Part shown: piece by piece, positions 9,545-64,000 of the stretch
Layout of the letters: each line of letters opens with the position of its first letter
How positions within the stretch are numbered: the first letter of the stretch is position 1
Assembly (NCBI GenBank): GCA_012838555.1
Contig: DUOZ01000115.1
Span: 2,226 to 66,225, forward strand
Reading direction: 5' to 3'
Source: a bacterium
GTDB taxonomy: Bacteria; Bacillota_I; Bacilli_A; RFN20; DUOZ01
DNA length: 64,000 nt
Made by a program: the position numbers and the translations under genes
Notes under the pieces: model-generated
Databases searched by the model: none
Seen by the model: only the letters and a program-made list of their open reading frames with translations
Told to the model about the DNA's origin: nothing

Positions 9545-10175
9545 TATTTGTTTCTCCTTTCTTAGTTAATAAAAATAAACAAATACTTGGCATAAAGAAT
9601 TTTTCTTTGATTTTAATCACTTTTATTAAATTAAAGTGTTCTTTAGTTAATGATTCTATCTTTTTGATTGATGGATACTTACCAAAACCAGTATAAAATT
9701 TTACAGCAAACATAGAAATTTTATCATAAAAGTTATTGATTGAAGCTTGTGCTAGTAATAAATAGCCATTATCATTTAATAGATTATTAAACTTTTTAAT
9801 AGCTTTTTCTTGATCTTGGTAATAAGGAAAAGAATGTGAACACATGATAATATCAAATTTTTCAACAGTCTCAAAATCAAAGATACTACTATTGTAGAAA
9901 GTAATATCTTTGTTTTTAATTTTAGCAAGTTCGAGCATTTTTGAAGATATGTCAACACCAATAATGTTAAGGTCATAGCTTATAAATTCATTTTTTACCT
10001 CATAGATAAGTTGTCCAATACCACAGCTCATATCTAAAATATTTAAACTAGTGCCAGGTTTAATGATGTTATGAAGCTCATTTATAATCGTGTTTCTTGT
10101 TGGACCTAGTGAGTATTTTTGTATCCAGTGCTTCTCATATTTGGTAGCCCAATAATCCCATACCTTCTTGCTCAA
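9537..10175 (-). CDS. Class I SAM-dependent methyltransferase
   Basis: The ILDMSCGIGQL motif is present. It overlaps the VOC gene by 8 nt. Confidence 0.7.
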   Translation of the reverse strand: MSKKVWDYWATKYEKHWIQKYSLGPTRNTIINELHNIIKPGTSLNILDMSCGIGQLIYEVKNEFISYDLNIIGVDISSKMLELAKIKNKDITFYNSSIFDFETVEKFDIIMCSHSFPYYQDQEKAIKKFNNLLNDNGYLLLAQASINNFYDKISMFAVKFYTGFGKYPSIKKIESLTKEHFNLIKVIKIKEKFFMPSICLFLLTKKGETNND

Positions 10176-47229: not shown

Positions 47230-48342
47230 ATGAAGGAATTGCCTATGATTTTTAAAACATTTCCAGTTGTTTTTGCTTTAAATAACAATTATCACATTAT
47301 GGTTTTGGTTAACGAACCTTGTTTAATGTGGGTTAAAGTAGGAAGTAATGAGTATTATGATGAATCAAATGGAATATTAAGGTCTTCTAACAAGATTCAT
47401 AGAATGATAGTACCAATAGATGAACTAGATAAAGAACTAAACTATCAAGTTGTCTATCGTAAGATTATTGAACGTAAACCTTATTTTCCTTTAATAGAAG
47501 AACCTGTATTTATTAATTTTAAGTTTAAGCCAGTTAAAGAAACACCGATTAATATTTACCATATTTCTGATGCACATAATAAAGTAGAAACGCCTGTTAA
47601 AGCAGGTAGTTACTTTAAAGATAAATTAGATTTATTAATCTTAAACGGTGATATCCCTAATCATAGTGGGGAAATAAAATACTTTGATACAATTTATGAA
47701 ATCGCAGGTAGTATTACAAAAGGTAATATTCCTGTTATATTTTCTAGGGGTAATCATGATATGAGAGGATTTTATGCTGAAAATCTAATTGATTATACTC
47801 CGCATGACAACGGTAATTCATATTTTACTTTTAGATTAGGTCCGCTTTGGGGTGTTGTTTTAGACTGTGGTGAAGATAAAGATGATGATCATAGTGAATA
47901 TGGTGGAACGATTTGTTGTCATGCTTTTAGATTAAGGCAAACTAAGTTTCTTGAAAATATTGTTAAAAATGCTAGTAATGAATATGGTGCTGAAGGGATT
48001 AAACATAAAGTTGTAATCTCTCATATTCCGTTTACAGATACTTTTGAACCGCCTTTTAACATTGAAAAGGATGTTTATGCAAAGTGGGTAGGTATTTTAG
48101 ATGAGCATATAAAACCAGATATAATGATATGCGGACATATGCATGATACAAGAGTAGATTTTAGTGATAAGATTCATGATGAAAAGGGGAATCAAATACC
48201 GATTGTTATTGGTTCAAATCCATTTTTAAATAAAGAAGACGATATCTTTATAGGTGCTGCAATAACACTTGAAGATAATCGTATAAATGTGAAATTTACT
48301 GACCATACTGGTAAGATTTTTAACGAAGCGAAGATAAGATAG
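47230..48342 (+). CDS. Metallophosphoesterase (calcineurin-like)
   Basis: It has GDIPNH, the GNHD motif SRGNHDM and a GH(x)H motif ICGHMHD. It is 370 aa. Confidence 0.7.
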   Translation: MKELPMIFKTFPVVFALNNNYHIMVLVNEPCLMWVKVGSNEYYDESNGILRSSNKIHRMIVPIDELDKELNYQVVYRKIIERKPYFPLIEEPVFINFKFKPVKETPINIYHISDAHNKVETPVKAGSYFKDKLDLLILNGDIPNHSGEIKYFDTIYEIAGSITKGNIPVIFSRGNHDMRGFYAENLIDYTPHDNGNSYFTFRLGPLWGVVLDCGEDKDDDHSEYGGTICCHAFRLRQTKFLENIVKNASNEYGAEGIKHKVVISHIPFTDTFEPPFNIEKDVYAKWVGILDEHIKPDIMICGHMHDTRVDFSDKIHDEKGNQIPIVIGSNPFLNKEDDIFIGAAITLEDNRINVKFTDHTGKIFNEAKIR

Positions 48343-48352
48343 TACTAAAATT

Positions 48353-48377
48353 GATGAGCTGAATGGCTCATCTTTTT
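48353..48377 (+). terminator. Rho-independent terminator after the metallophosphoesterase gene
   Basis: The stem GATGAGC/GCTCATC has a 6-nt loop and is followed by TTTTT. Confidence 0.6.
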
Positions 48378-48497: not shown

Positions 48498-48537
48498 ATG
48501 AAAGCGCTTGACAGTTTTTTAAAATGTGTTGTATTAT
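48498..48537 (+). promoter_or_regulatory. Promoter of the fructan-locus operon with overlapping cre-like element
   Basis: The -35 TTGACA is at 48508-48513. An 18-nt spacer leads to the -10 TATTAT at 48532-48537. The upstream cre-like sequence ATGAAAGCGCTTGACA lies at 48498-48513, with a perfect left half TGAAAGCG. Confidence 0.4.
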
Positions 48538-48550
48538 TAAATCATAAAAA

Positions 48551-48568
48551 TGTGGTATCGATACCACA
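48551..48568 (+). promoter_or_regulatory. Perfect 18-bp palindrome (LacI-family-type operator) between promoter and RBS
   Basis: TGTGGTATCGATACCACA is centred on CG. It lies 13 nt after the -10 and 4 nt before the AAGGAGG RBS. Confidence 0.6.
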
Positions 48569-48585
48569 CCGAAGGAGGAACTAAA

Positions 48586-49920
48586 GTGAAAAGAGTTAAA
48601 AAGTTTGTTACACTTGCTTTAGCTGCCATGATGCTAGTTGGTTGTGGTGGCAATACTGGTGAAGAAGAATCACCTGATGTAAAAATTGTTAAAATTTGGG
48701 TTCACAAATCCGAAGCAGAAGATGAAGGTAAGGTGTACTCAGCTGTTGCAGATTTATTTAATGAACAAGAAATTAAGACTGCTGATGGCACCAAAACAAT
48801 TAAGATGAAATTAGAATTTAAGAACAGTGCTGAAACACTTTCTAATGCTATTAGTTCAGAAATTCTAACTGGTGGTCTTCCAGATATCGTTGCTGTTGAC
48901 GCTCCTAATATTGCAGCGTATGCAGATGCAGGAATCTTAACAAGTATAGATGATTATTTAACGACAGAAACCATTGATAGCTACGTAAGTAGTGTTATCG
49001 AACAAAGTACTATTGATGGAAAAATTTATGCTTTATCTGCTATGGATGCTCCAACAGGACTTTATTACAACAAAGACTTACTAAAACAAGTAGGTTATAC
49101 AGATGAAGATTTTGGAAGTATTGAAAATCCTTGGTCATGGGTTGATGTTAAAGAAGCTATGGCTAAGTTAAAAGAAAAAGGTTTATCTTATCAAATTAAA
49201 CTAAACCTTGGCTTTGGTGGAGACGAAGGATTAATGTATCTATATTCTGCTCTTGTTTACTCAGCTGGTGGAGACTTCATTACTAGCGAAGGTAAAACTG
49301 AAGGTGCTTTAAATAGTGAAGAAACATTAGCAGGTATTAGAGTCCTTGAAGATATCTTAAGAGTAGATACTAATGGCGATTCATGGTATTACAATGGTGC
49401 CAACACAGATGCTTTAGCAGCTGGTGAAGTTGCGTTTGAAGTCTTTGGCCCTTGGAGTATTGCATCTATTAAGAAAAATTATCCTGAATTTGTAAATAGT
49501 TATGATATTATGCCATTCCCAGTTTATGAAGATGAAAATGGTAATAAGGGAAGTTTAGCTGCTGGTAGTGGATCTTGGGGATTTGGTGTTACACCAAACG
49601 CTAAAGACAAAGACGCTGCAGCTAAAGTACTTGCTTACTTAACTGGACCAGAAGCAAGTAGATTATTATATGAATCAATTGGTACATTCCCAACACATAA
49701 ATCACTATTTGATGAAATTAGTGATTTCCATACAGGTCCATTAAATTCATTAGCAGTTATTTTAGAAAGAGCTGCGACACCACGTCCAAAAATGGTTAAC
49801 TATCCAAAACTAAGCAGTGGATACAGTAAAATCATTTCTTATATTGAAACAATGCATGAATCTGAAGAATATGACCTAGTTGGGTTTATCAATACACAAA
49901 TCGCTCAAATTGATAGATAG
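48586..49920 (+). CDS. ABC transporter substrate-binding lipoprotein (CUT1 / SBP_bac_1 family)
   Basis: It has a GTG start after GGAGG and a signal peptide with lipobox LVGC. The protein is about 444 aa with extracellular solute-binding protein family 1 topology. Confidence 0.8.
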   Translation: MKRVKKFVTLALAAMMLVGCGGNTGEEESPDVKIVKIWVHKSEAEDEGKVYSAVADLFNEQEIKTADGTKTIKMKLEFKNSAETLSNAISSEILTGGLPDIVAVDAPNIAAYADAGILTSIDDYLTTETIDSYVSSVIEQSTIDGKIYALSAMDAPTGLYYNKDLLKQVGYTDEDFGSIENPWSWVDVKEAMAKLKEKGLSYQIKLNLGFGGDEGLMYLYSALVYSAGGDFITSEGKTEGALNSEETLAGIRVLEDILRVDTNGDSWYYNGANTDALAAGEVAFEVFGPWSIASIKKNYPEFVNSYDIMPFPVYEDENGNKGSLAAGSGSWGFGVTPNAKDKDAAAKVLAYLTGPEASRLLYESIGTFPTHKSLFDEISDFHTGPLNSLAVILERAATPRPKMVNYPKLSSGYSKIISYIETMHESEEYDLVGFINTQIAQIDR

Positions 49921-49928
49921 GTCTTATT

Positions 49929-50861
49929 ATGAGTGTTAGTTCAGTAAAAAAACCTAAAAAAATGTATTTTAGGTTTATGGGAAAGAGTTACCGTATATCC
50001 GATACTATAATCGGATATACGTTCCTCTTACCAGCCTTAATACTGGGCATAATCTTCATTATTATGCCGATAGTCATATCTTTAGCTTATGCATTTACTG
50101 ATGCGAACTTATTAAAGTTGAATCAGGTTAATTTCGTCGGACTTAAAAACTTTGAATTCTTGATAAGTGATGAAACTTTATGGCAAGCATTCAAAAATAC
50201 GATGGAATTTGTTATTAAGGTAGTACCACTTCAGTTACTAACTGCACTAGGTCTAGCCTTACTTGTTAATAAGAAAATGAAAGGTAATACTTTCTTTAGG
50301 TGGGCATTCTTTGCTCCAGTTATGTTATCATTAGCAGTTACTTCGATGTTATGGATTAACTTGCTTAACGAACAAGATGGCTTAATTAATGCAATATTAA
50401 CGATGATGGGTTTACCAAAAGAAAAATTCTTAGGTGACCCTAAGATGGCGATGGATTTAATTGTTTTAATCTCAGCATGGCAAGGTGCAGGTTACCAAAT
50501 GTTAATCTTCTTGTCAGGCTTAAAAAATATTCCTAAAGAAATGTATGAAGCAGCAAGTATTGATGGTGCTAATAAAAGACAACAATTCTTTAGAATTACT
50601 TTACCAAGTATTAGACCAACCTTTTCATTCGTATTAATTACCATGCTCATTGGAGCCTTTAGATTAATTACTCAGCCGATGATCATGACACAAGGTGGTC
50701 CAATTAATAAGACTTTAACGATGTCTTATTATATTTATCAACAAGGTATCACTTACCGTGATGTAGGTTATTCAAGTGCGATTGCTCTAGTTTATACCAT
50801 CTTTATGGCAACAATTGCACTAACACTTCGAAAAATCACGGAAAAGGACAACACTGTTTAA
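49929..50861 (+). CDS. ABC sugar permease (MalF/UgpA-like)
   Basis: It has six TM helices and the EAA loop EAASIDGANKRQQFFRITLP. Confidence 0.8.
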   Translation: MSVSSVKKPKKMYFRFMGKSYRISDTIIGYTFLLPALILGIIFIIMPIVISLAYAFTDANLLKLNQVNFVGLKNFEFLISDETLWQAFKNTMEFVIKVVPLQLLTALGLALLVNKKMKGNTFFRWAFFAPVMLSLAVTSMLWINLLNEQDGLINAILTMMGLPKEKFLGDPKMAMDLIVLISAWQGAGYQMLIFLSGLKNIPKEMYEAASIDGANKRQQFFRITLPSIRPTFSFVLITMLIGAFRLITQPMIMTQGGPINKTLTMSYYIYQQGITYRDVGYSSAIALVYTIFMATIALTLRKITEKDNTV

Positions 50862-50869: not shown

Positions 50870-51787
50870 ATGATGGAACTTAAATTAAAAAGTGAATCAC
50901 TAAATTATATCCCGCCAAAAAAGAAAAGTTTAACACCAAAGAGAGTAATTAAATCAACATTATTTTACGCATTTATGCTACTACTAGCTGCTATATTCAC
51001 TTTCCCAGTTTTGTGGATGGTAGTAAACAGCTTTAAATCACAAAAAGAAGTATATGAAACCATTAATTCTCTTAGAACATTCCTACCATATACATGGGAT
51101 GTAACGAAATGGTTTGAATCATATAAGAATTTATTCTCAACATTTGACTATTTTGGTCAATCAATCATTAACAGTATCGTTTATGCCTCAATTACGATAA
51201 CAGGCGTCCTTATTATTAATTCAATCGCAGGTTATGCTTTATCTAGATTCGTATTCCCAGGTCATAAACTAATTGTTAATATTATTATCTTAATTCTAAT
51301 TGTCCCTGTGGAAACATCAATCGTTCCATTATACGTTATCTTAAAGAACTTGGGACTTTTAGACCCTAATCTAAGAATTATTGGTTATTTAATTCCTGGA
51401 TTAGTTAGTCCATTTTATATCTTTATGTTTAGAAATTACTTCTTAGGAATACCTAAAGAGTTAGAAGAGGCTGCTTATATTGATGGAGCAGGTAGATTAA
51501 AGACATTTTTTGGAATCATAATTCCGGTATCGTTACCAGTCTTTGCGACAGTTGCCATATTTACCTTTATGGGTTCATGGAATGAATATGTCTTTGCTCA
51601 ATTAATGTTCTCTTCTCCAGCTCAACAGCCATTACAAGTATTCCTACAGTTAATCAATAACTTTAATCCAAAAGATATATCCTTAGTAATGGCATCATTA
51701 ACATTCTCAACGATACCAATTGCGATTGTATATATCTTCTGTCAACGTTACATTGTCGAAGGTGTAGCATTCACAGGATTAAAATAA
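50870..51787 (+). CDS. ABC sugar permease (MalG/UgpE-like)
   Basis: It has six TM helices and the EAA loop EEAAYIDGAGRLKTFFGIIIP. Confidence 0.8.
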   Translation: MMELKLKSESLNYIPPKKKSLTPKRVIKSTLFYAFMLLLAAIFTFPVLWMVVNSFKSQKEVYETINSLRTFLPYTWDVTKWFESYKNLFSTFDYFGQSIINSIVYASITITGVLIINSIAGYALSRFVFPGHKLIVNIIILILIVPVETSIVPLYVILKNLGLLDPNLRIIGYLIPGLVSPFYIFMFRNYFLGIPKELEEAAYIDGAGRLKTFFGIIIPVSLPVFATVAIFTFMGSWNEYVFAQLMFSSPAQQPLQVFLQLINNFNPKDISLVMASLTFSTIPIAIVYIFCQRYIVEGVAFTGLK

Positions 51788-51808: not shown

Positions 51809-54178
51809 ATGAAAAAGACATTATCACTTATATTTATGATGTCAATCATTGTTTCCTTTCTAGGTTGTGCTCAAACTAATATGAACAGTGATTCTCAATT
51901 TATCAATGATTATAAAGATCCTAATCAAGATTCATTACTCTTATCTTTATCTTTTGATGAAGAAAGTGGTAATCAAGTAGAGGATAAAATTACTTCATCT
52001 TTAGCAACTATTAATTATGTGTTTAATGATGCTAAATATAAAAGTAATGAAGATCCTCAAAGGACAAAAAGGTCTGCTGTGAGCGGAAGTGCTCTAGCAT
52101 TTGATGGATATTCTAATTATATTGAGTATCCTTCATCAACTATTCAAGTTCATGGACCTTACTTAACAATTGATGTCTTTGTAAGTCCAAGGATGTTTGA
52201 ATGGGATGACCCATATGCCTTATATAACGGTAATGAAAACTTACAAGTAATACTAGGTCAATATAACAAGGATAGTAAAGCTGGATTTGTATTAGGGATG
52301 CATAAATATGGTAACTTTTCATTCCAAGTTGGACTTGGAGATAGATGGGTTAAGTTATGGAATGAATGGAATAAGTTAGACCGTTATAAATGGAATCATT
52401 TAACTGCCGTCTATAATGGTGAAACTGGCTTCATGGCTTTATATAAAAATGGTGAGATTGTTAACTATGAAGAAAAAGTATTTGGAAGTATAGCACCTGC
52501 TAATGTTCCTCTTTACATTGGTAAAAGTCATCAACCTCAACGTGTCGGAGTCTTTGAACTAAATATGTTTAATGGCTTAATGGATGAACTAAGAATTTAT
52601 AATAAAGCCTTAAATGAAGAAGATATCTATAACTATCATCAAAGTTATCTAATAGATGGAAGTATAAAAGAAGTTAAGTTTGAAGATGCTTGGTTAAATG
52701 CAGATATTTTAGATGATGATATCTATCATCCTAAATATCATGCAACACCCCCACAGCATTGGATGAATGAACCACACGCCTTATTTTATTACAAAGGTTA
52801 TTATCATATGTTCTATCAATTTAATCTTACCGGTCCTTATTGGCGACAAATCACTTGGGGTCATTGGGTAAGTAAAGATTTAGTTAGATGGGAACATGTT
52901 AAAGAAGCTATTGTCATGGATGAAAGAAGTGTTGTTAAAGACGGCGCTTGGAGTGGCAATATGGCTTATAAACAAGATGGAACTCCGGTCTTATTTATTA
53001 CAGCAGGTGATGATGGAAAGTCTTATGGACAATATAGTAATCAAAATATTGCTATCGCTGTCCCTAAAGACTTAAATGACCCTTATTTAACAGAGTGGGA
53101 AATCCATGATTCCTTAGTTGTAACTCATACTTCTAGTATGGGAAGAATGAATGAGTTTAGAGATCCTAATGTTTACTATGAAGATGGAGTTTACTATATG
53201 GTTGTTAGTGCTTCAAAACATGATGGAAAAGGAACAGCCTTATTATTTACAACAAGTGATGATTCATTTACATCATGGAATTATGAAGGGAATTTATTTA
53301 CACCAAAGAATTTCTATCCATACATGGGAAGCACTTGGGAATTGGTGAATTTAGTTAAAGTTCATAACGAAAGTAAAACATTGTCTAAATATCTATTCGT
53401 CTTTTCACCTTCAGGAAGTGGTTCAGATAATGATGTTTATTATTATCTAGGAGATTTTGATAAAAAGACAAAGAGATTTATACCTGAACATGATGATCCA
53501 CTCTTAATGGATTATGGAAATAATGTCTTTACTGGACCGACGATTTACACAGAACCTCATAGTGGAAGAGTCTTAATAAGTTCAATCTTACAAGATCAAA
53601 GAACAGGTAGAGAACATTATGATGCAGGTTGGGCCTTTATGGCTGGAATACCTCGAGAATTATCTTTAGATTATGAAGGTAATTTAAAGGTCACACCGAT
53701 TAAAGAATTAGAGACTTTAAAAGGTGATTCATTAGCAAGTTTAAAAGATACATCAATAAATGTTGCTAATGAAGAGTTAGACAAAGTGGATAGCTCTCAA
53801 GTCTATGTGCATTTAAAAATTAGTACATCTGAGTCTACTAACTTTGGTTTAAAAATTAAAAAAGATGAATTAGGTCGAGAAACAATCATTGGTTATGATA
53901 AATCGACAAAGCAAATATATATTGATACCACTAATTCAGGAAATACAAATGTCAAAGGTATTTTTGGAGGGTATCTAGAATTAATTGATGGTCAAACACT
54001 TGATTTAGAAGTTTATGTCGATGGAGCGACAATTGAGTGTTACATCAATGGATATAAGACAATCTCTGCGATGGTTTATAACACTGCTACTAAGATGGAA
54101 TTCTATGCGGATGATAAAGTAATGATTGATTTACTAGAAATAAACTATATGCAGAGTATCAAGGAGGGGCTTAAATGA
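51809..54178 (+). CDS. GH32 lipoprotein A: N-terminal LamG/ConA-like domain plus GH32 beta-propeller and C-terminal beta-sandwich, with variant active-site motifs
   Basis: The lipobox is FLGC. The LamG-like domain reads LSLSFDEESGNQVEDK...AFDGYSNYIEY. GH32 block A is HWMNEPHALFYY, with Glu at 52769-52771. FSGS is present as WSGNMAY, RDP as FRDPNV, and the EC motif as TWELVN. Confidence 0.8.
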   Translation: MKKTLSLIFMMSIIVSFLGCAQTNMNSDSQFINDYKDPNQDSLLLSLSFDEESGNQVEDKITSSLATINYVFNDAKYKSNEDPQRTKRSAVSGSALAFDGYSNYIEYPSSTIQVHGPYLTIDVFVSPRMFEWDDPYALYNGNENLQVILGQYNKDSKAGFVLGMHKYGNFSFQVGLGDRWVKLWNEWNKLDRYKWNHLTAVYNGETGFMALYKNGEIVNYEEKVFGSIAPANVPLYIGKSHQPQRVGVFELNMFNGLMDELRIYNKALNEEDIYNYHQSYLIDGSIKEVKFEDAWLNADILDDDIYHPKYHATPPQHWMNEPHALFYYKGYYHMFYQFNLTGPYWRQITWGHWVSKDLVRWEHVKEAIVMDERSVVKDGAWSGNMAYKQDGTPVLFITAGDDGKSYGQYSNQNIAIAVPKDLNDPYLTEWEIHDSLVVTHTSSMGRMNEFRDPNVYYEDGVYYMVVSASKHDGKGTALLFTTSDDSFTSWNYEGNLFTPKNFYPYMGSTWELVNLVKVHNESKTLSKYLFVFSPSGSGSDNDVYYYLGDFDKKTKRFIPEHDDPLLMDYGNNVFTGPTIYTEPHSGRVLISSILQDQRTGREHYDAGWAFMAGIPRELSLDYEGNLKVTPIKELETLKGDSLASLKDTSINVANEELDKVDSSQVYVHLKISTSESTNFGLKIKKDELGRETIIGYDKSTKQIYIDTTNSGNTNVKGIFGGYLELIDGQTLDLEVYVDGATIECYINGYKTISAMVYNTATKMEFYADDKVMIDLLEINYMQSIKEGLK

Positions 54179-56532
54179 AAAAAACCTTAACTAAAATTTT
54201 AACATTTATCTTTATATTATTAGTAGCTTCTAGTTGTAATTCTTCTGGTAGTGATAAAGATTTAATGCTATATCTTTCATTTGATGAAGGAAGTGGCAAT
54301 AAGGTTGAAGATAAAGCTAAGAAATTAGATACAGCGACAGTTCAATATGTCTTTAATAATCCAAAGTTTCAACCCTCACCTCAAGATCCTCAGTGGCGAG
54401 AAAACGGTGTGATAAATGGAGCGTTACTGTTTGATGGGTATTCAAATTATATCCGTTATAACTATGAAGACATTAAGATAAGAGGTTCTTCTTTATCAAT
54501 AAGTGTGTTTGTAGCCCCTAGAGCTTTTGAATGGGATGACCCAAATGCTAAAGAAAAGGGTACTGATAAATTAACAGCGATTGCATCTCAATATAGTAAA
54601 GATACCAATAGTGGATTTATTCTAGGTTATCAACGTCACGGTGCATTTAGTTTCCAAGTTGGTCTTGGAGATCGTTGGTTAACTATTTGGGATGAGGGAA
54701 ATCCACTTAAGAAGTATGAATGGAACCATATAAGTGCGGTATTTGATGGTAAAAAAGGTAGAATGGCTCTTTATTTAAACGGAGAATTAATTAATGAAAA
54801 ATTATTTTTTGAAGGAGCTGAAATCGCACCAGCATATGATGAACCATTATTAATTGGTAGAAACAATTATCCTGGTTCAAATGCAACTGCTAGTTTAAAT
54901 ATGGTAAGTGGATTACTAGATGAATTAAAAATTTATAACCGAGTTTTAAGTACTAGTGAGATTGAAAAATATGTTAACGGTATTGACATACCAAAATTAG
55001 AATATGAAGATATTGCGTTAGTTAATATTCTGCAAGATGATTATTACAAAACTCAATATCATGGTGGTCCATATCAACATTGGATGAATGAACCACATGC
55101 GCCACTTTATTATAACGGTTATTATCACTTATTCTTCCAACATAATTTATTTGGTCCTTATTTTAGAAATATTGGTTGGGGACATTTAGTAAGTGAAGAT
55201 ATGGTCAATTGGCGTCCATTAAAGGAAATTATTATGCCAAGTGCAAATACAGTAGCACCTGATGGAGTTTGGTCAGGTGGAGCCACTTATGATAAAGATG
55301 GTGTACCAGTTTTATTCTTCACAGCAGGTAATGATTCATTTAGAAAAGATGGATTAATCAGCAATCAAAATATCGGTATTGCTCGACCTAAAGATAAAAA
55401 CGATCCATTACTTCAAGAATGGGTTGTAGGTGAAGAATTAGTAATTGCTCAACAGCCTGGTCAAGGTAAACCGGGTGAATTTAGAGATGCTCACCTGTTT
55501 ATTGAAGATGATACTTATTATTTCTTAATTGGTTCAGCAAGCACTAAACCAAATACAGGTGGAACAGCACTTCTATTTACTACTAAGGATGATTTAGAAA
55601 ACTGGACTTATAAAGGTCAATTATTTGAGATTCAAAATCAACCTGGTGATTTAGGTAGTGTGTGGGAGTTACCAGTCTTGTTACCGGTTTATAACGAAGC
55701 TAAAACAATTAAAAAGTATGTCTTTATTATCTCGCCAGCACCAGCCGATAGAGCAGATAACGACATTTATTACTGGATAGGTGATTTTGATAAAGTAAAT
55801 GGACGCTTTATCCCTGATGCAAGTTTTGGTAATAAACCTAGACTGCTTGATTATGGAAACAACGTCTTTACAGGTCCTTCAGGATTTATTGATCCAAAGA
55901 CAGGTAAGGCAATTATCTTCTCAATTATGCAAGATCAAAGATTACCTGGACATGTTGCTAGTTCTGGTTGGGCTAATAGTGTTGGATTAGCTAGAGAAAT
56001 CTACTTAAATGATGATGGTAGTGATCTAAAGATTAGACCAGTTGAAGCAATTAAAAACTTAGAAGACAAAACTCTAGCCGAGTTTAAAAATAAATCAGTT
56101 AATGACGCTAATGCGTTATTAAAAGATGTTAAAGGAGATATGCTTTATATCCATGTTGAATTTAAAAATGTGAGTGCAAGTAACTTTGGAATTAAAGTTA
56201 GAAAGAATGACAAAGTACTTGAAGAAACAGCTTTCTACTATGATGTAACTACATCTACAGTAGGAGTTAGAACAGGACTTAGTGGAGCTTATAGTAGTAA
56301 CCAAAATATTGCAGGTAAATTCTATGGACCATTAAGTTTAGATGAAAACACATTAAAAATGGATTTATATCTAGATAGATCATTAATTGAAGGATTCTTT
56401 AACTCTGATAAAGCAATCTCAGCTCGAGTGTATCCTGATATCACCTCATTAGGAATTGAATTATTTGAAGAAGGTGGCACGGTCGAGATTAAGAATATGG
56501 TAGTTAAGACCATGCGCTCAATTTATGAATAG
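54175..56532 (+). CDS. GH32 lipoprotein B: paralogue of A with LamG-like N-terminal domain and variant motifs
   Basis: The lipobox is ASSC. The LamG-like domain reads LYLSFDEGSGNKVEDK...LFDGYSNYIRY. GH32 block A is HWMNEPHAPLYY, with Glu at 55090-55092. RDP is replaced by FRDAHL and the EC motif by VWELPV. It overlaps the upstream gene by 4 nt. Confidence 0.8.
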   Translation: MKKTLTKILTFIFILLVASSCNSSGSDKDLMLYLSFDEGSGNKVEDKAKKLDTATVQYVFNNPKFQPSPQDPQWRENGVINGALLFDGYSNYIRYNYEDIKIRGSSLSISVFVAPRAFEWDDPNAKEKGTDKLTAIASQYSKDTNSGFILGYQRHGAFSFQVGLGDRWLTIWDEGNPLKKYEWNHISAVFDGKKGRMALYLNGELINEKLFFEGAEIAPAYDEPLLIGRNNYPGSNATASLNMVSGLLDELKIYNRVLSTSEIEKYVNGIDIPKLEYEDIALVNILQDDYYKTQYHGGPYQHWMNEPHAPLYYNGYYHLFFQHNLFGPYFRNIGWGHLVSEDMVNWRPLKEIIMPSANTVAPDGVWSGGATYDKDGVPVLFFTAGNDSFRKDGLISNQNIGIARPKDKNDPLLQEWVVGEELVIAQQPGQGKPGEFRDAHLFIEDDTYYFLIGSASTKPNTGGTALLFTTKDDLENWTYKGQLFEIQNQPGDLGSVWELPVLLPVYNEAKTIKKYVFIISPAPADRADNDIYYWIGDFDKVNGRFIPDASFGNKPRLLDYGNNVFTGPSGFIDPKTGKAIIFSIMQDQRLPGHVASSGWANSVGLAREIYLNDDGSDLKIRPVEAIKNLEDKTLAEFKNKSVNDANALLKDVKGDMLYIHVEFKNVSASNFGIKVRKNDKVLEETAFYYDVTTSTVGVRTGLSGAYSSNQNIAGKFYGPLSLDENTLKMDLYLDRSLIEGFFNSDKAISARVYPDITSLGIELFEEGGTVEIKNMVVKTMRSIYE

Positions 56533-56546
56533 AGGTGGGAAATGAA

Positions 56547-58583
56547 ATGAAAAGAATAACTAGTTTGGTAATGATTGGTATTATGCTCTTATTGTTTGGA
56601 TGTAATGATACCACAGTAAAAGAAATTACTAACCCAAGCTTTGAAACAGGAACATTAAGAGGTTGGGAAATAAAAGGAGAAGCCTTTAGTAATAGTGGAG
56701 TTATCTTTGATGATAAAGATAGTAAAGGAAATTATTACAATCAAGAGGGAGACTTCTTCTTCTATGGTGGAAAAGCCAAAAAAGGCTCTGTTGGTGAATT
56801 GTTATCAAATGAATTTATTTTAAGTGGAAATGGATTAATCGGTTTTAAAATTGGAGCCGGTAAGAATTATGAAAAATGTTATGTTGCCTTAATTGATAGT
56901 AAGGGTAATGTACTTGTTACTCGAGGCAATTATGAATTCGATGAAAATGACTCTGCAGATACATTACACCGCGTAATCTTAGATGCATCGAGTCACGTTG
57001 GAAAAAAAGTAAGAATTAAGGTTGTTGATAATGATAGTGGTGTAGATGGATATAACTACATCAATGTTGATGACTTTATAGTGAATTATCAAGGAGTTGT
57101 AGAACCAGTGGGAAAAGTAGCCAAAGCACATCAGTATGTCTTAGATAACATGCACAAAGTTAATCCTCGTTATCGTCAGACATATCATGCAATGCCCCCG
57201 CTTAATTGGGGGAACGATCCGAATGGATTAATTTATTATCAAGGAAAAGGTCATTTATTCTTCCAATTCAATCCTTATGATTCTGTTTGGGGTCCAATGC
57301 ATTGGGGGCATTACACTACCGAAGACTTTATTAAGTGGGAGTTGCAACCAGTTGCATTAGCACCAGACAAGGATTATGACAATCAATTTGGAGCCTTTAG
57401 CGGTACAGCGATTGAAAAGGACGGAAAGCTCTACTTAATGTATACAGGTGTAGCTAATGACTTACAACAACAAGCTCTAGCAGTCTCAAGTGATGGAATT
57501 ACGTTTGAGAAATTAAACCGTAATCCAGTTATAAGTGTCAATCAATTACCAAAAGGAGCTTCACCAAAAGACTTTAGAGATCCAAAAGTCTTTTATAAGG
57601 ACGGAAGTTACTATGCCATTATTGGTAGTAGGATGAACGGGTATGGAATGATTTTAATGTATAAATCTCATAATTTAACTTCATGGGAATATGTAGGAGA
57701 AGTTATGAATAGTTCCAATCCAAGTGAACCTAATTTCTATCAACTAAGTGGAGTTTATGAATGTCCTGATTTCTTTGAAATTGATGGTAAAGAAGTGATT
57801 ATTGCATCACCCCAATTCTTACCTCAAGATGGAAACAAATTCGAGAACATCCATTCAGTTGTCTATATGATTGGTAACTTTAACTATGAGACTGGAAGGT
57901 TTACTTATGATGAATTTATTGAATTTGACAGTGGATTTGATTTCTATGCGGCTCAAACATTAAAACATGAAGATGGTAGAACAATCTTAATCGCTTGGAA
58001 ACAAATGTGGGACCGTACTTTAGTTACTCAAGCAGATAACTGGGTAGGCTCATACACATTACCAAGAGAATTAACTTATAAAAATAACCGCATTTATCAA
58101 GCTCCAGTTAGAGAAATCGAAAATTATCGTAAGAACCATGTGAGCTATACTAATCAAGTTATTGATGAAAAATTAAAACTTGATAAGGTTGTTGGAACGA
58201 CTGTTGAATTAGAGTTTGAATTAGAAATGAATAATGCTTCTAAAGCAGGAGTTAAATTATTCAAAGGAGCTTATAACGAAACAGTCTTATCTTATGACAA
58301 AGCTACACAAACATTAACATTTGACCGCTCTAGAAGTGGTAAGTCAATTTCAGGAGCAGAATCAAATGACTTCTATCGTGCTGAAACGATTCCATTAATT
58401 GATGGAAAAATTAAATTAAGAATTTTCCTTGATGTATCAAGTGTGGAAGTCTTTATTAACGATGGATATATGACTATGACAAGTAATGTTTATCCAGATG
58501 AGTTTGATGTTGGCATTGAGTTCTTTTCTGAAAATGGTCAAGCAAGAATTACATCATTAGATAAATATGACATTATAGTTTAA
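56547..58583 (+). CDS. GH32 lipoprotein C: canonical beta-fructofuranosidase/fructanase with N-terminal CBM-like module
   Basis: The start MKRIT follows an AGAGGTGGG RBS, and the lipobox is LFGC. The N-terminal module runs from NPSFETGTLRGW to YINVDDFIV. Canonical motifs are present: NWGNDPNGLIYY (Asp at 57216-57218), FSGTA, FRDPKV and YECPDFF. Confidence 0.85.
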   Translation: MKRITSLVMIGIMLLLFGCNDTTVKEITNPSFETGTLRGWEIKGEAFSNSGVIFDDKDSKGNYYNQEGDFFFYGGKAKKGSVGELLSNEFILSGNGLIGFKIGAGKNYEKCYVALIDSKGNVLVTRGNYEFDENDSADTLHRVILDASSHVGKKVRIKVVDNDSGVDGYNYINVDDFIVNYQGVVEPVGKVAKAHQYVLDNMHKVNPRYRQTYHAMPPLNWGNDPNGLIYYQGKGHLFFQFNPYDSVWGPMHWGHYTTEDFIKWELQPVALAPDKDYDNQFGAFSGTAIEKDGKLYLMYTGVANDLQQQALAVSSDGITFEKLNRNPVISVNQLPKGASPKDFRDPKVFYKDGSYYAIIGSRMNGYGMILMYKSHNLTSWEYVGEVMNSSNPSEPNFYQLSGVYECPDFFEIDGKEVIIASPQFLPQDGNKFENIHSVVYMIGNFNYETGRFTYDEFIEFDSGFDFYAAQTLKHEDGRTILIAWKQMWDRTLVTQADNWVGSYTLPRELTYKNNRIYQAPVREIENYRKNHVSYTNQVIDEKLKLDKVVGTTVELEFELEMNNASKAGVKLFKGAYNETVLSYDKATQTLTFDRSRSGKSISGAESNDFYRAETIPLIDGKIKLRIFLDVSSVEVFINDGYMTMTSNVYPDEFDVGIEFFSENGQARITSLDKYDIIV

Positions 58584-58741
58584 AAATTTAATTTGATTAT
58601 TTAGGTCATAAAAAAGGAAAAAGGTTAGATTCATCCAAGTCATGTCGGGGTGATGATCAGGGAGAATCAAACCTTGTATATATAGCATACCACTTTTATG
58701 GCCTGAATATAAACAAAAAATGCAAAATGGAGGTAAAAAGT

Positions 58742-61492
58742 ATGAAAAACTTAGTAAAACGCATTTCAATCACCCTCCTTGCAGTGTTGACGCTATCAAT
58801 TGCATCAGCATGTAACAATCAAGGAGGTACTTCCATCCCTACAACTATCGAAAACGGTGGTTTTGAAGAAGGTACTCAAGAAACCTGGACAGGATGGACA
58901 AGAACAGGAACTGCCTTTTCATCTCGTGGTGTTGTTAATGATACACAGGTTAATGGCATAACTGTAGATAAAGAAGGCGAATATTGGTTTAGTGGACTAG
59001 ATGGTGGAACTCAAAAGATGACTGGTACACTTACATCAAATGTCTTTAAATTAACAGGAACAGGCCATATCGCTTTTAAAATGGGCGCAGCAAAATATGG
59101 AGACAAAATCTTTGTTGAATTCATTGAAGATGGTACTGATACTGTTTTAGCAAAAGTTACAAACAGTGATTACAATGAACCATGGATTACTGACCAAATG
59201 ATTCGTAAAATTGTTGACTTATCAGAACATTTAGATAAGAATATCTATATTAAAATTACTGATAATGATAACAATGATGATTATGGTTATGTTAACCTTG
59301 ATGACTTTGTTATTTGTCTAACTCAAGAAGATGTTAATAAATATACTACAGAAAGAAATAACCAATTAGAAGCTTATTCTGAACCAGAATTTGAAGAAGA
59401 TGAAACTTCAACAACAATTCAAAACCCTGGTTTTGAAACTGGAGATTTAACTGGTTGGAAAATCTTAAGTGGTACAGCCTTTGGTGGAAACGTAATTGTT
59501 CCTACTTCACAATACTACTGGACAGATAGATCAGTTTATGGTGAAGGTGAATACTACTTAGATGGCAATAACAATGGTGAAATTGCTGAATCTGCAGTAG
59601 GTGTAGTTCGTTCATCTAAATTCACTCTTGCAGGCGATGGCTTTATTTCATTCATGATTGGTGCTGCACCAACTAATTGTTATATTGCTATTAATGATGG
59701 TGTTACTGGTGAAGAATTAATTAAAGTTACAAATACTACCTTTAAAGACCCTGCTTTACCATTAACATTAAGAAGAGTTTATGTTGATGCCTCTGCTTAT
59801 TTAAATAAAGTATTATATATCACAATCGTGGATAACAATCCTTCAAGTGGTTTTGCCTTTATCACTGCGGATGATTTCCATGTAAGTATGACTGAAGAAG
59901 AAGTTGTTTCATTAATGAAATATCAATATGATAAGATTATGAATGAAACTTATACTGATTCATACAATTCATTATTACACTTACAAAACTATTATCAAAA
60001 CTATGAATATCCATTTGAACTTCCTGCATTAGTCTTTGAAAATAAAGCAAGTGGAGTTGTTAGTGGAATTAAAGAAGATGTTAACTTAAATGATTTCATT
60101 AAAGATGTCGTTATTAAATACGGTAGTGTAGATGTTCCAGCTGCAATTACTAAAGTTGTCTTTGAAGAAGAAACATTTACAGATGGTTTCGATTCATTTG
60201 ATTTAGCAAATGAAGGTACATATGTAGTTTACTATGGTGCTACATATGAAGGAGAAACTATTGAAGATTCATTCAATATCGTTGTGGCAGGTAACGTTAA
60301 CGTTGTTAACGGTGGCTTTGAAACTGGCGATATGACTGGTTGGACAGTTGTTGAAGGTGAAATTGATGACGGTGTTATCGATGCTGAAACATACTGGGGC
60401 GAAAAGATTGCTTATAACCGTCATGGTAACTATCACTTTGATGGTTGGACAGCAACTAGCGATGAACCAGCAGGATATGTCTTACGTTCAAATACATTTG
60501 TTCTATCAGGAACAGGTTGGGCTTCATTCATGATGGGTGGAAACGCTGCTAGAGTACGTGTTAGTTTAGCAGATGGTACACCAATTGGATACTTTACTAA
60601 CTATAAATTCCTTGATGAAGGATTCCCACTCTTAGCTACAGGTGGAAGATGGGCTACAATGACTAGATACTTTGTTGATTTATCAGCTTACCTAGGCGAA
60701 GAAGTCTATGTTGAATTAATCGATGACGCTAATGCTGCTGGTTGGGCAGTTGCCTTCTTTGATGAAATTAACTTCTACCATGAAACTACACCAGATGTAG
60801 AAAATGGATTTGATACAGTTCTAGAATCTAATGAAACTGGTGAAGAAGTTCAAATCCACTGGGAATATGCAGATAATGCTTATATCATTAATGGTGGCTT
60901 TGAAACTGGTGACATGACTGGATGGACTAGTGAAGAAGTTAAAGTTAATGCTGTTATTAGCGATTCATTCTACTGGAATGAAAAACTTCCATACAATCAA
61001 ACTGGTAATTACCACTTTGATGGATGGAGTTCAGGTGTAAATGAAAATGAAACTTATGCTTTAAGATCAACAGTATTTACACTACATGGAACAGGATATA
61101 TCTCTGTTAAAATGGGTGGAAATGCTGCAGCAGTTAAAGTTTACTTAGAAGATGGAACTCTTGTAGGTTTCTATAAACAAAACCGTTTCAGCGATACTAA
61201 CTTCCCTAACTTAGATCAAGGTGGTTCATGGGCTGATATGGGTAAATACTTCTTTGACTTAAGTGATTATGTAGGTCAAAAACTATATATCGAATTATTA
61301 GATATTGAAGTTGAAGGTTGGGCAGTTGCCTTCTTTGATGACGTAATTACTTACTATGAAGAATTACCTGATATTGATAATGGCTTTGACACTGTAACTT
61401 TATACTCTCTAGATGATGATGGTGAATTTACAGTTGAACGTAGTCATAACATTCCATGGCAATTAGCATCTAATCTAGTAGAAGCTGAATAA
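58742..61492 (+). CDS. Surface lipoprotein made of four tandem CBM-like beta-sandwich modules (homologous to the N-terminal module of GH32-C) and no catalytic domain
   Basis: It has a GGAGG RBS and a signal peptide with lipobox IASAC. The four repeats start at NGGFEEGT (about 58847), NPGFETGD (about 59417), NGGFETGDMTGW (about 60305) and NGGFETGDMTGW (about 60893). Each ends in a ..DDF.. motif. Confidence 0.6.
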   Translation: MKNLVKRISITLLAVLTLSIASACNNQGGTSIPTTIENGGFEEGTQETWTGWTRTGTAFSSRGVVNDTQVNGITVDKEGEYWFSGLDGGTQKMTGTLTSNVFKLTGTGHIAFKMGAAKYGDKIFVEFIEDGTDTVLAKVTNSDYNEPWITDQMIRKIVDLSEHLDKNIYIKITDNDNNDDYGYVNLDDFVICLTQEDVNKYTTERNNQLEAYSEPEFEEDETSTTIQNPGFETGDLTGWKILSGTAFGGNVIVPTSQYYWTDRSVYGEGEYYLDGNNNGEIAESAVGVVRSSKFTLAGDGFISFMIGAAPTNCYIAINDGVTGEELIKVTNTTFKDPALPLTLRRVYVDASAYLNKVLYITIVDNNPSSGFAFITADDFHVSMTEEEVVSLMKYQYDKIMNETYTDSYNSLLHLQNYYQNYEYPFELPALVFENKASGVVSGIKEDVNLNDFIKDVVIKYGSVDVPAAITKVVFEEETFTDGFDSFDLANEGTYVVYYGATYEGETIEDSFNIVVAGNVNVVNGGFETGDMTGWTVVEGEIDDGVIDAETYWGEKIAYNRHGNYHFDGWTATSDEPAGYVLRSNTFVLSGTGWASFMMGGNAARVRVSLADGTPIGYFTNYKFLDEGFPLLATGGRWATMTRYFVDLSAYLGEEVYVELIDDANAAGWAVAFFDEINFYHETTPDVENGFDTVLESNETGEEVQIHWEYADNAYIINGGFETGDMTGWTSEEVKVNAVISDSFYWNEKLPYNQTGNYHFDGWSSGVNENETYALRSTVFTLHGTGYISVKMGGNAAAVKVYLEDGTLVGFYKQNRFSDTNFPNLDQGGSWADMGKYFFDLSDYVGQKLYIELLDIEVEGWAVAFFDDVITYYEELPDIDNGFDTVTLYSLDDDGEFTVERSHNIPWQLASNLVEAE
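60305..61367 (+). repeat. Intragenic tandem duplication (modules 3 and 4) with near-identical DNA stretches
   Basis: A 26-nt identical run GGTTGGGCAGTTGCCTTCTTTGATGA occurs at 60741 and again at 61317. AACGGTGGCTTTGAAACTGG occurs at about 60308, with a 1-mismatch copy at about 60889. Confidence 0.6.
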
Positions 61493-61500
61493 TCCTTTAA

Positions 61501-61537
61501 TCAGAGGATGAAAAAGTCTCATCCTCTGATTTATTTT
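61501..61537 (+). terminator. Strong rho-independent terminator after the CBM-repeat lipoprotein gene
   Basis: An 11-bp stem TCAGAGGATGA/TCATCCTCTGA has a 7-nt loop and is followed by TTTATTTTAT. Confidence 0.7.
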
Positions 61538-61567
61538 ATGGTATATTATTAGTAAATAAATAAGTAG

Positions 61568-62548
61568 GTGGTCGATTTGGTTCAGATTAAAGATGTAGCA
61601 AAAAGAGCCGGATGCGGAACGAGCACTGTATCAAGAGTTCTAAATAATTCTGGCTATGTCTCAAAAGAAACACGAGAAAGAATTGAAAGAGCAATCAAAG
61701 AATTAAAATATGTGCCTAATCAGATGGGAAGAAATCTTAAGCGACTTAGTTCGCATTTAGTAGCATTATTTGTTCCAACAATCTCTCACCCATTCTTCTC
61801 TAAAATTGCATATTACATTGAAAATTATCTTTATAAATATGGGTTTAGAATGATTATAGTATCTTCTCAAGATAATAAGGAAAAAGAAGTTAAACTTCTT
61901 GATATGATAAAAAATAAACAAGTTGATGGGATTATCTTTATTACGACTCATATTCATGATGATGTTAATTTTGAAGGAATGTCTATTGTTACATTAGATA
62001 GAAAAATACCAGGAGTCCCTTGTATTGCCTCAAATAACTATGAGTCAACATATGAAGCGGTTGAATATTTAGTTAAACTAGGTTGTAAAAAAATTGGTTA
62101 TATCGGTGGTTTAACTAAAGTAGGTTCTGAAGTTGAAAAAAGATATGAAGCTTATTGTGATGTCATGAATAAGTATCAATTAGAGATTATTGATTGTCGT
62201 AAAGAAATATTACACGGAGAAGAGTACAATATCTCAAAAGAGTTTATTGATGAAAATCCTGATTTGGATGCGATTTTTGCTCAAAGTGATATATTTGCCC
62301 ATTGTTGTTATCTAATTGAATTGCAAAGAGGTAGAAAGATACCTGAAGATATTAAGATTGTTGGATATGATGGTGTTATGGATGAAATTTACCAACATCC
62401 TACTTTTACTGTTGTTAGGCAAAACTTAGATAAATTAAGTGAAAAAATTGTTCAACAATTAGTTAGACGAATGAAAAAGAAAAAGTGTGAGAAACTTTCA
62501 ATTGTACCTGCTGATTTTATTATTGGTGAAACTACTGAGGTGAAATAA
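61568..62548 (+). CDS. LacI-family transcriptional regulator
   Basis: It has a GTG or TTG start. The N-terminal HTH is IKDVAKRAGCGTSTVSRVLNN. The C-terminus is a periplasmic-binding-protein-like sugar-binding domain. Confidence 0.85.
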   Translation: MVDLVQIKDVAKRAGCGTSTVSRVLNNSGYVSKETRERIERAIKELKYVPNQMGRNLKRLSSHLVALFVPTISHPFFSKIAYYIENYLYKYGFRMIIVSSQDNKEKEVKLLDMIKNKQVDGIIFITTHIHDDVNFEGMSIVTLDRKIPGVPCIASNNYESTYEAVEYLVKLGCKKIGYIGGLTKVGSEVEKRYEAYCDVMNKYQLEIIDCRKEILHGEEYNISKEFIDENPDLDAIFAQSDIFAHCCYLIELQRGRKIPEDIKIVGYDGVMDEIYQHPTFTVVRQNLDKLSEKIVQQLVRRMKKKKCEKLSIVPADFIIGETTEVK

Positions 62549-62549: not shown

Positions 62550-63479
62550 ATGATTTTATGTATTGGTGAAATACTTGTTGATTTAATTGGTAAAGAAGTA
62601 AATGGACGTACTAGTTATGATGTTTTTGCCGGAGGTGCTCCATTTAACGTAGCTTGTGGAATTAAAAATTTCGGAGGCAATGTTATATTTATCGGTAATG
62701 TTGGTGACGACATTATGGGTAGGTTTTTATTAGACTTCGCTAATAAAAGAAGTTTTGATAAATTATTAATTTCTCTAGATCAAGAACATAATACAACACT
62801 TGCTTTTGTTAAAAATGATGAAGATGGTGAAAGAAGTTTTTGCTTTCATCGTAAAAATACTGCTGATTATTTTTTTAATACAGATTACTTTGCTGAAATT
62901 GAAAATGCTGATATTGTTCATGTAGGTACTTTAATGTTATCAAATGAAGAAGGAAGAAAAATGGCAGACTTAATCATTGAAACAACAAAGAAAAGTGGTA
63001 AGTTATTAAGTCTTGATATTAACTTTAGAGATGATATTTATAAGAGCAAAGAAGAAGCAATTAAAGTATATCAACATTATGCTTCAAAGGCTGATATAAT
63101 TAAATATTCACTAGATGAACTTCAATTATTTTCATCTAAGCATGATATATATCAAGCTTTAAATGAAATAGCAAAGCCAAATCAATTAGTCTTTTTAACC
63201 TTAGGTAAAGAAGGTTCACTATGTTATTACAATCAAAATGTCGTTAAATCACATTCAATAAAAGTAATGTCTGTGGATACAACTGGAGCTGGTGATGCCT
63301 TTTATGGTGCGATTTTATCCCAACTTGACCGTATAGGATTTGAAAACTTTGTTAAGGATAAGAATGTAATTAAAGAGGTGTTAAGATTTGCTAATCTTAC
63401 TGGAGCTTTAACAACAACAAAAAAAGGCGCGATTGATGCCTTACCTACTTTAGAGGAGATTAATACATTTACTAAGTAA
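62550..63479 (+). CDS. Fructokinase (pfkB/ribokinase family)
   Basis: Its N-terminus reads ILCIGEILVDLIG and it carries the C-terminal TTGAGDAF motif. It is 309 aa and lies 1 nt after the LacI stop. Confidence 0.8.
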   Translation: MILCIGEILVDLIGKEVNGRTSYDVFAGGAPFNVACGIKNFGGNVIFIGNVGDDIMGRFLLDFANKRSFDKLLISLDQEHNTTLAFVKNDEDGERSFCFHRKNTADYFFNTDYFAEIENADIVHVGTLMLSNEEGRKMADLIIETTKKSGKLLSLDINFRDDIYKSKEEAIKVYQHYASKADIIKYSLDELQLFSSKHDIYQALNEIAKPNQLVFLTLGKEGSLCYYNQNVVKSHSIKVMSVDTTGAGDAFYGAILSQLDRIGFENFVKDKNVIKEVLRFANLTGALTTTKKGAIDALPTLEEINTFTK

Positions 63480-63480: not shown

Positions 63481-64000
63481 ATGAAAAAAAGAAGTTTCAT
63501 GAATAAGCTCATAATGGGCTTTGATAACAAAAAGAACTTAAAACCTAAAAATCGCTTTGAAGTTTTTAAGTTGATGTTTTATGAATCACCACTTAAACTT
63601 GTTTTACTGTCCTTTTCTATTTTTATATCAACTCTACCTTTAGTTATTTTATTAGTAAGTAAAGATATTTATATAATGTATGGAGATGCAAGTATTAAAG
63701 ATAATCCTTATGGCTTATTTTTAATTAACTTTTTTACATACACTATATCAATACCTTTAATTATTATTGTTTTTGTTAACCTAGGTGGAGTTTTTTATGT
63801 TATTAAAAAAATGGCATGGGATGAAACTCTAGATTTTAAATTTGATTATAAAGATGGAATTAAAAAATCATTAAAAGAGAGTGTTTTATTAGGATTAATT
63901 CTTGGATTATCAATCGATGTAATGATGACTAATTTATATTTTTTACGATTAGATTTAGGTTTTGATCCAATTATTACTACAATTATGACTTATTTATCAA
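63481..64000 (+). CDS. Membrane protein, partial at window end (DUF624/YesL-like?)
   Basis: The reading frame is open from the ATG at 63481 to the window end, more than 173 codons. The N-terminus MGFDNKK is followed by hydrophobic helices. Its position after sugar-utilisation genes resembles YesL-like proteins. Confidence 0.35.
   Translation, partial: MKKRSFMNKLIMGFDNKKNLKPKNRFEVFKLMFYESPLKLVLLSFSIFISTLPLVILLVSKDIYIMYGDASIKDNPYGLFLINFFTYTISIPLIIIVFVNLGGVFYVIKKMAWDETLDFKFDYKDGIKKSLKESVLLGLILGLSIDVMMTNLYFLRLDLGFDPIITTIMTYLS

Follow-up and report, generated by a model that had tools for sequence, protein, structure and literature searches.

Which protein switches the putative fructan locus of contig DUOZ01000115.1 on and off, and at which site on the DNA does it act? 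The contig belongs to a Bacillota_I genome of the lineage RFN20, and the 64,000-nucleotide stretch analysed, positions 2,226 to 66,225, is hereafter called the window. The question is raised by a compact control region ahead of the first gene of the locus, coding for the substrate-binding protein (SBP) of an ATP-binding cassette (ABC) importer, in which a perfect 18-bp palindrome, TGTGGTATCGATACCACA, is found between promoter and ribosome-binding site (RBS). The element (48551-48568, not assigned to either strand, with the dinucleotide CG at 48559-48560 as its centre) is with high probability an operator of the LacI/GalR family, and most likely that of the LacI-type repressor encoded at the far end of the same locus (61577-62548). 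This reading is drawn from the conservation of the motif, the co-localisation of LacI orthologues, and the covariation of a recognition-helix residue with operator bases. Repression by the locus-encoded LacI through the palindrome had been proposed in an earlier note on this DNA, and the comparison of sequences along these lines strongly supports the proposal.

Apart from the palindrome, the signals of the control region and the genes of the operon and of the lacI-pfkB unit lie on the plus strand. The left edge of the control region is an intrinsic terminator-like hairpin (48353-48372; 8-bp stem with 4 GC pairs, then a T run), which closes an upstream metallophosphoesterase gene (open reading frame 47230-48342, matching Pfam Metallophos). 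The promoter that follows is of the sigma-70 (sigma-A) type, with a -35 hexamer TTGACA (48508-48513, 6/6 match) and a -10 hexamer TATTAT (48532-48537, 5/6 match) set 18 nt apart, a spacer within the 16-18 nt range. With a score of 11/12, TTGACA-18 nt-TATTAT is joint-best in a promoter scan of the region 46.4-64 kb, and its geometry places the predicted transcription start near 48544. The palindrome begins after exactly 13 nt past the -10 hexamer, and corresponds to about +8 to +25 of the predicted transcript. The RBS AAGGAGG (48572-48578) is found 3 nt after the palindrome (4 nt if AGGAGG is taken), and 7 nt ahead of a GTG at 48586, the likely start codon of the SBP gene, rather than the ATG at 48550 of the mechanical open reading frame; relative to this GTG, the palindrome covers residues -35 to -18. 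No riboswitch or known leader is present in the window, an Rfam scan of its whole length having returned 0 matches. The sequence elements of the earlier note were all recovered, to within 1 nt, and the CG-centred palindrome was confirmed at 48551-48568.

The palindrome stands above chance: with up to 3 mismatches tolerated, no second copy turns up in the 64 kb (0.04 occurrences expected), and its core motif recurs ahead of orthologous operons. For 1173 of 1303 LacI-family transcription factors, the motif described is a palindrome of even length (16-22 nt) with CG at its centre, and over 75% of sites are located at -140 to -30 from the start codon (PMC4052901). The element analysed here has an even length within this range and a central CG, and resides in a promoter region, at that end of the usual range of positions which is nearest the start codon. 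Sites in the window and in orthologous loci both match the rule, and hence look like LacI-family operators. A full-text search for the motif strings in the literature library available retrieved a variant of the CebR box and one unrelated paper, and no published description of the operator. It might be supposed that the repeat is an intrinsic terminator of the minus strand, or an inverted repeat arisen by chance, the more so as a terminator scan lists 9 pairs followed by TTTTATGATTT. Yet no minus-strand gene ends there, the flanking genes are both on the plus strand, and the motif is conserved in sequence as in position, so that the probability of this alternative is practically negligible.

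Conservation was monitored in 44 loci carrying SBP orthologues, one genome per species, plus several metagenome contigs. The SBP was used as anchor; lacI was unsuitable, the operator lying more than 10 kb upstream of lacI, beyond the flank. The nearest relatives are metagenome-assembled genomes (MAGs) labelled as Bacilli, Acholeplasmatales, Christensenellaceae and Clostridia. The consensus TGTGG[A/G/T]A[A/T]CG[A/T]T[T/C/A]CCACA (TGTGGNANCGNTNCCACA) is found upstream of the operon in almost every locus. The exact core TGGNANCGNTNCCA, which has ten fixed bases, occurs 44 times in the 1.06 Mb of fetched loci, about one copy being expected, and approximately 40 of the 44 copies precede the orthologous operon, at no more than 260 nt from its first gene. 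Sites with up to one mismatch number 66; at least one is present in 41 of 43 non-redundant loci, 21 loci having two and 2 having three. The centres of orthologous sites range from -20 to -244 relative to the start. Residues C9/G10 are found in 103 of 106 symmetrised halves, a figure partly circular, as sites had been selected on the pattern at up to one mismatch. Two seeming exceptions, L031 and L049, fit the rule: there the operon begins with another gene, and the site precedes that one. In L049, in which the SBP is 47% identical, the same 18-mer is located right after the -10 hexamer, and a second site 58 bp upstream; here the operator is more conserved than the SBP protein. The whole control region is retained in a 99%-identical strain (L056), and Bacilli-type relatives share the layout of the window, with -35, -10, operator and RBS in this order.

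Further variation was observed in the number and integrity of the sites. Clostridia-type loci (L013, L015, L016, L023-L025, L027, L028 and L030) have GGAAACGTTTCC-type operators in tandem, two or three per locus, some 100 nt ahead of the SBP gene; their spacing is 31-33 bp centre to centre, or some three helical turns, whereas the window has a single site. The spacing suggests cooperative binding of two dimers. In L054, the closest of the long relatives, two shortened palindromes (TGTGGTTTACCACA and TATGGAAAGTTCCACA, about 9745-9800, some 205-230 nt upstream of the SBP start) keep the outer arms of the operator without its central bases, and are perhaps auxiliary sites that have decayed or diverged. 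Sites matching the operator core at up to one mismatch number 3 in the window, against 0.43 expected; one-mismatch copies are internal to genes, at 51525-51538 (CGGTATCGTTACCA, second permease gene) and 60538-60551 (TGGAAACGCTGCTA, gene for a 921-aa protein), and CGGTATCGTTACCA persists in L056, the 99%-identical strain. As auxiliary operators, the internal copies were rejected: L054, L012 and other loci have no counterparts of them at the corresponding places, and the density of sites downstream of the operon start equals that found far upstream.

Stem-loops near the 5' end are known to protect mRNAs in Gram-positive bacteria, and the palindrome could act mainly as an RNA hairpin (7-bp stem, 4-nt loop) influencing stability or translation of the transcript, DNA binding being secondary or absent. 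The distance of the repeat from the predicted 5' end would be about 7 nt at most, and the 5' untranslated region has a predicted fold of -9.1 kcal/mol. The fold is unexceptional, however (z = -1.7; 11 of 200 shuffled sequences fold as well), and bases are conserved across orthologues (GG, A7 and the central CG), those of the would-be loop included. Perfect palindromes are only 3 of 53 distinct sites, the halves varying independently among GGTAT, GGGAA and GGAAA, and complementarity is broken at positions 6/13 in 8 of the 53 sites and at positions 8/11 in 23. In many loci, moreover, two to three copies are scattered from -20 to -244, some of them upstream of the -35 hexamer, and hence outside of the transcript. 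Independent variation of the halves, along with an almost invariant central CG, points to a protein site rather than to an RNA hairpin, and a main role as hairpin is accordingly given very little probability.

The candidate binder is a 323-aa protein (61577-62548; probable TTG start at 61577, the mechanical open reading frame beginning with a GTG at 61568). Matches to PF00356 (E = 3e-21), PF00532, PF13377 and PF13407 give it the domain architecture of the LacI/GalR family. Its recognition helix reads GTSTVSR, and the hinge carries Leu-Lys (RNLK). In an ungapped alignment made by hand, RNLK corresponds to S53-L54-K55 of PurR. Scores against the models for ccpA (TIGR01481; 137 bits, cut-off 442) and fruct_sucro_rep (TIGR02417; 109 bits, cut-off 390) indicate that, by sequence, the locus regulator is a generic member of the LacI family, neither a CcpA nor a FruR/ScrR orthologue. 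A candidate cognate factor of the LacI family is encoded in the locus itself, in keeping with the description of such sites in PMC4052901. Orthologues with 39-59% identity are found in the same locus or contig, in the same gene order, in at least 17 cases. Their genes come after that of a large protein of unknown function, and either precede pfkB or lie close to it.

Position 6 of the operator changes in step with the first variable residue in the recognition helix (GxxTVSR). Hydrophobic residues (V, I, M or L) are paired with GGAAA in 11 loci, K with GGGAA in L059, L026 and L052, and T with GGTAT in the window, in L054 and probably in L061. In Lac repressor, according to the work of Lehming and Mueller-Hill, residues 1 and 2 of the helix reportedly contact base pairs 4 and 5 from the centre, which correspond to position 6 here. 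The covariation of helix and operator bases supports the local LacI as the binder, without being decisive.

Some observations weigh against the assignment to this protein. The covariation is derived from few and phylogenetically related pairs, and the pairing of L061 with regulator P0016 is presumptive. For P0016, which is of the TS type, GGTAT halves were predicted, and the prediction was half borne out, L061 having one GGGAA and one GGTAT. Searched as an exact string in a metagenome collection, the 18-mer was found in 28 contigs, one of which is from the same species; 12 of the 28 copies are about 25-120 nt from a LacI-family gene, but the twelve encoded proteins are not orthologous to the window LacI (28-34% identity) and have other recognition helices (VS, SI or PM, for example). 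The sequence of the operator alone hence does not name its binder, and the assignment to the window LacI rests on co-localisation and covariation. A strict specificity code was rejected, because of both P0016 and the distant LacIs with other helices found beside the identical 18-mer. In addition, the window LacI falls below every NCBIfam equivalog cut-off; nor was any close relative known to bind fructooligosaccharide (FOS) found when the SBP was compared to solved structures.

These contigs mostly carry loci of a different kind. In L066-L069, L071, L076, L078, L086-L088 and L090, the order of elements is mostly lacI, TGTGGTATCGATACCACA, a gene similar to alpha-glucosidases of glycoside hydrolase family 13 (GH13), and a phosphotransferase system (PTS) EIIBC(A) gene. 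Non-orthologous LacI regulogs thus appear to use an identical operator sequence, and by this comparison TGTGGTATCGATACCACA is a recurrent LacI-family operator in nature. The operator of the window could then belong to the LacI family and be bound by a protein encoded elsewhere, a paralogue or CcpA itself, rather than by the LacI at 61577-62548. Besides the GH13-PTS loci, this would be in line with the presence of two LacI paralogues in some Clostridia-type loci (L019 and L022), and with the common GGAAACGTTTCC variant being 2 mismatches away from the consensus of the catabolite-responsive element (cre). Against it stand the conservation of the LacI orthologue at the end of the locus, the covariation of its helix residue with position 6, the 4 mismatches separating the window operator from the cre consensus, and the lack of any second LacI-family gene in the 64-kb window. 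A binder encoded elsewhere is decidedly improbable, and the LacI of the locus is retained as the favoured partner of the palindrome.

Most local LacI factors, about three fourths, are typically autoregulated (PMC4052901); the window lacI seemingly is not. A strong terminator (61499-61531, 13-bp stem and T run) ends the operator-controlled operon, and is followed by a putative extended -10 promoter, TGgTATATT (61539-61547), for lacI and pfkB, with no operator nearby. The same organization, in which lacI is preceded by a strong terminator and then by a promoter-like stretch (TGgTATATT, TGaTATAAT or similar), is found in the window (61499-61580), L001 (9841-10000), L003 (9821-10000) and L006 (9928-10000), and no operator-like site was detected upstream of lacI in any of the four. 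Given its own terminator and promoter-like stretch and the lack of an operator, lacI-pfkB appears to be a separate, non-autoregulated unit. The pfkB gene codes for a PfkB-family fructokinase (62550-63479; best model NF006957, below cut-off), starts after a gap of 1 nt, and is probably co-transcribed with lacI; it follows lacI in the window, L001 and L006, L003 being the exception.

Is a second regulator active at the same promoter? The earlier note had proposed catabolite control of the CcpA type, through a cre-like site with a perfect left half merged with the -35 hexamer. The element TGAAAGCGCTTGAC (48499-48512) does have a perfect left half and the central CG, its right half being made up by the -35 hexamer (48508-48513), which it overlaps, as befits the position of a cre; the longer string TGAAAGCGCTTGACA (48499-48513) includes the whole TTGACA. 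Compared to the cre consensus TGWAANCGNTNWCA, TGAAAGCGCTTGAC matches at 11 of 14 positions, all 3 mismatches falling in the right half. Validated cre sites of L. plantarum deviate from the consensus by 1-2 nt and were shown to bind CcpA (PMC5986886), whereas the window site, with its three mismatches, exceeds this limit. Matches of 11/14 quality number 739 across the window, 671 being expected, and are not significant alone; at up to one mismatch, no cre was found near any promoter of the window, that of the operon included. In line with this, TGAAAGCGCTT may be a chance resemblance flanking a consensus -35, the operon being under LacI control only, a view also in keeping with the absence of the core AAGCGCT in L034, L039, L040 and L042, the closest relatives with low-GC promoters. 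The position of the cre-like core, furthermore, varies among relatives, which speaks against a cre function as well.

Other data count against a chance resemblance. The contiguous left part of the site, TGAAANCGCTT, is found once in the window, 0.13 copies being expected. The same fusion of left half and -35 is found in L012 (TGAAAACGCTTGACA), and the mirror arrangement TTGACA(A)AAGCGCTTACA in L026, L052, L059 and L061; one-mismatch cre sites are located between -35 and -10 in L054 (TGAAAGCGCTTTGA), L044 and L035, and the cre core AAGCGCTT recurs beside or over the -35 hexamer in related promoters. Of 45 orthologous upstream regions, 12 contain sites with up to one mismatch (0.45 expected), and the AAGCGCT core is present in 8 of 16 non-redundant Bacilli-type promoters, while no comparable 7-mer exceeds 5 in shuffled sequences. 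Of the earlier proposal, the perfect left half over the -35 stands, and related promoters have counterparts of it, but the right half deviates at three residues and the match is not significant by itself. The chance of a mere resemblance is about even, and control of the operon by CcpA through cre, taken alone, is a possibility rated even or slightly below.

A half-site, ATACCAC, had also been noted upstream of the gene of a lipoprotein with a carbohydrate-binding module, and is here located at 58687-58693. The heptamer recurs 14 times in the window, 5.4 copies being expected, a number never reached in 100 shuffled sequences. Most copies are on the plus strand and within genes, and the excess is probably an effect of codon or amino-acid composition rather than a sign of regulation. 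As a regulatory half-site, the copy near 58688 was discarded: it is a common 7-mer with neither a partner half nor a central CG, and in none of the related loci is an operator found at this position. Its occurrence there is attributable to chance.

How would the operator work? A repressor dimer would bind the half-site TGTGGTAT and its reverse complement, the hinge helices inserting at the central CG. Sitting at about +8 to +25, the bound repressor would block either open complex formation or promoter escape at the single strong promoter, and would silence a 13-kb operon encoding the SBP, two permeases, three glycoside hydrolases of family 32 (GH32) and the 921-aa protein. The repressor would be released when a sugar derived from fructan, be it fructose, sucrose or a short fructooligosaccharide, binds to its sugar domain; the identity of the inducer is presumed from gene content and from the precedent of SacR1/SacR2 in L. 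plantarum (PMC7419226). LacI and fructokinase would be made from their own promoter behind the terminator, with no operator nearby. A second, weaker layer could be provided by a regulator of the CcpA type, which, on a preferred sugar, would compete with the sigma factor at the cre-like TGAAAGCGCTT over the -35.

Of the genes downstream of the operator, the first, that of the SBP (48586-49920), codes for a protein that is an ABC substrate-binding lipoprotein and matches SBP_bac_1 in Pfam; members of its cluster were named fructooligosaccharide transport SBP by JGI; the assignment of the substrate rests on gene context and on such names. Two ABC permease genes follow (49929-50861 and 50870-51787), both with a BPD_transp_1 domain. 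The 5' part of the first contains an inverted repeat of 12 bp with a 6-nt loop (CGTATATCCGAT ACTATA ATCGGATATACG, 49992-50021), flagged by the terminator scan. The three GH32 beta-fructosidase genes (51809-54178, 54175-56532 and 56535-58583) were identified by Pfam and NCBIfam, and two of the three feature an N-terminal Laminin_G_3 domain. The final gene of the operon (58727-61492) codes for the 921-aa protein, devoid of Pfam domains and conserved in position in related loci; a weak, sub-threshold match to NTTRR-F1 was the only one found. Counterparts of 912-914 aa occupy the same position in L001-L005; that of L054 measures about 912 aa, being cut by the end of the locus, and in L006/L007 two proteins of 750 and 552 aa are found. 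The protein is an uncharacterised, probably surface-located component of these fructan loci. A gene for a hydrophobic protein starts at 63482, after pfkB, and continues past the end of the window. The gene for the ABC ATPase is missing from the locus. In L006 (11904-14699), an equivalent gene of 297 aa is followed by a 632-aa ABC ATPase (ABC_tran, OB_MalK and TOBE_2, with C-terminal domains of the MalK type), and by analogy the missing gene may lie just past the window end.

The switch resembles those governed by LacI and PurR in E. coli, with which it shares an even palindrome with a central CG, an HTH_LacI domain and a hinge helix with Leu-Lys, as well as the correlation of recognition-helix residues 1 and 2 with base pairs 4 and 5 from the centre. 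As lac O1, the operator is located just past the -10 hexamer, where bound repressor blocks RNA polymerase, a mode of action predicted for the window. The half-site differs (TGTGGTAT), however, and, unlike E. coli LacI, the 323-aa repressor lacks the C-terminal tetramerisation segment; it is presumably a dimer unable to form loops, in line with a single operator. PurR is the best characterised match to the window LacI in the PDB (E = 2e-33), a remote relation only.

Comparable in function are the FOS clusters of L. plantarum, repressed by SacR1/SacR2 and, at cre sites, by CcpA (PMC7419226, PMC5986886). SacR1 and SacR2 are local LacI-family repressors of GH32 FOS loci, are released by FOS, and bind CG-centred pseudo-palindromes, all features reminiscent of the window. 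The msm FOS operon of L. acidophilus, regulated by MsmR (Barrangou 2003, as cited in PMC5986886), is, as far as reported there, another FOS locus under local LacI-family control. In this group, the operators differ in sequence from that of the window (AATGTCAAACGATTGACATA is one of them, and the consensus reads WNNNNNAACGNNTTNNNNNW), none of the regulators is a close homologue of the window LacI, and the L. plantarum clusters import sugars by PTS, whereas the window locus has ABC importer genes.

In sequence, the operator is reminiscent of the CebR/CelR box TGGGAGCGCTCCCA of actinobacterial cellulose and cellobiose regulons, which has the same TGG...CCA frame, a 14-bp core and a CG centre; the variant GGGAACGTTCCC found in related loci is nearly identical to the CebR-box variant TGGGAACGTTCCCA (PMC9953190). 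Phylum, sugar and regulon are different, and the similarity concerns the motif only, no orthology of the regulators having been shown. In the GH13-PTS loci (trehalose or alpha-glucoside type; L066-L090), the same TGTGGTATCGATACCACA has lacI on one side and, on the other, the RBS of the catabolic gene that comes first. There, in contrast to the window, lacI adjoins the operator, the typical layout of autoregulation, and the targets are GH13 and PTS EIIBC genes rather than ABC and GH32 genes.

Conceptually, the system adds nothing new, being an uncharacterised example of a well-known switch, with the standard logic of the LacI family and possibly standard catabolite repression. It is conceivable, but unlikely, that the data reveal a so far uncharacterised LacI regulog, confined to fructan loci of the ABC/GH32 type in uncultured gut Bacillota (Bacilli- and Clostridia-type MAGs), in which base 6 of the operator (T, G or A) is re-tuned by a single helix residue (T, K or hydrophobic, respectively), and in which a conserved half-cre/-35 composite lets CcpA compete with sigma region 4. 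If both regulog and composite held true, they would provide a natural, graded specificity series for DNA recognition by LacI proteins, and a compact two-input promoter design. The 18-bp operator and its putative repressor are also a candidate part for a sugar-inducible switch. For the organism, the analysis offers a testable regulatory model of a large fructan/inulin locus in an uncultured, small-genome lineage of Bacillota from gut-type metagenomes; for its relatives, TGTGGNANCGNTNCCACA could serve to annotate this regulon across dozens of MAGs, and to predict in which organisms GH32 loci would be switched on by prebiotic fructans.

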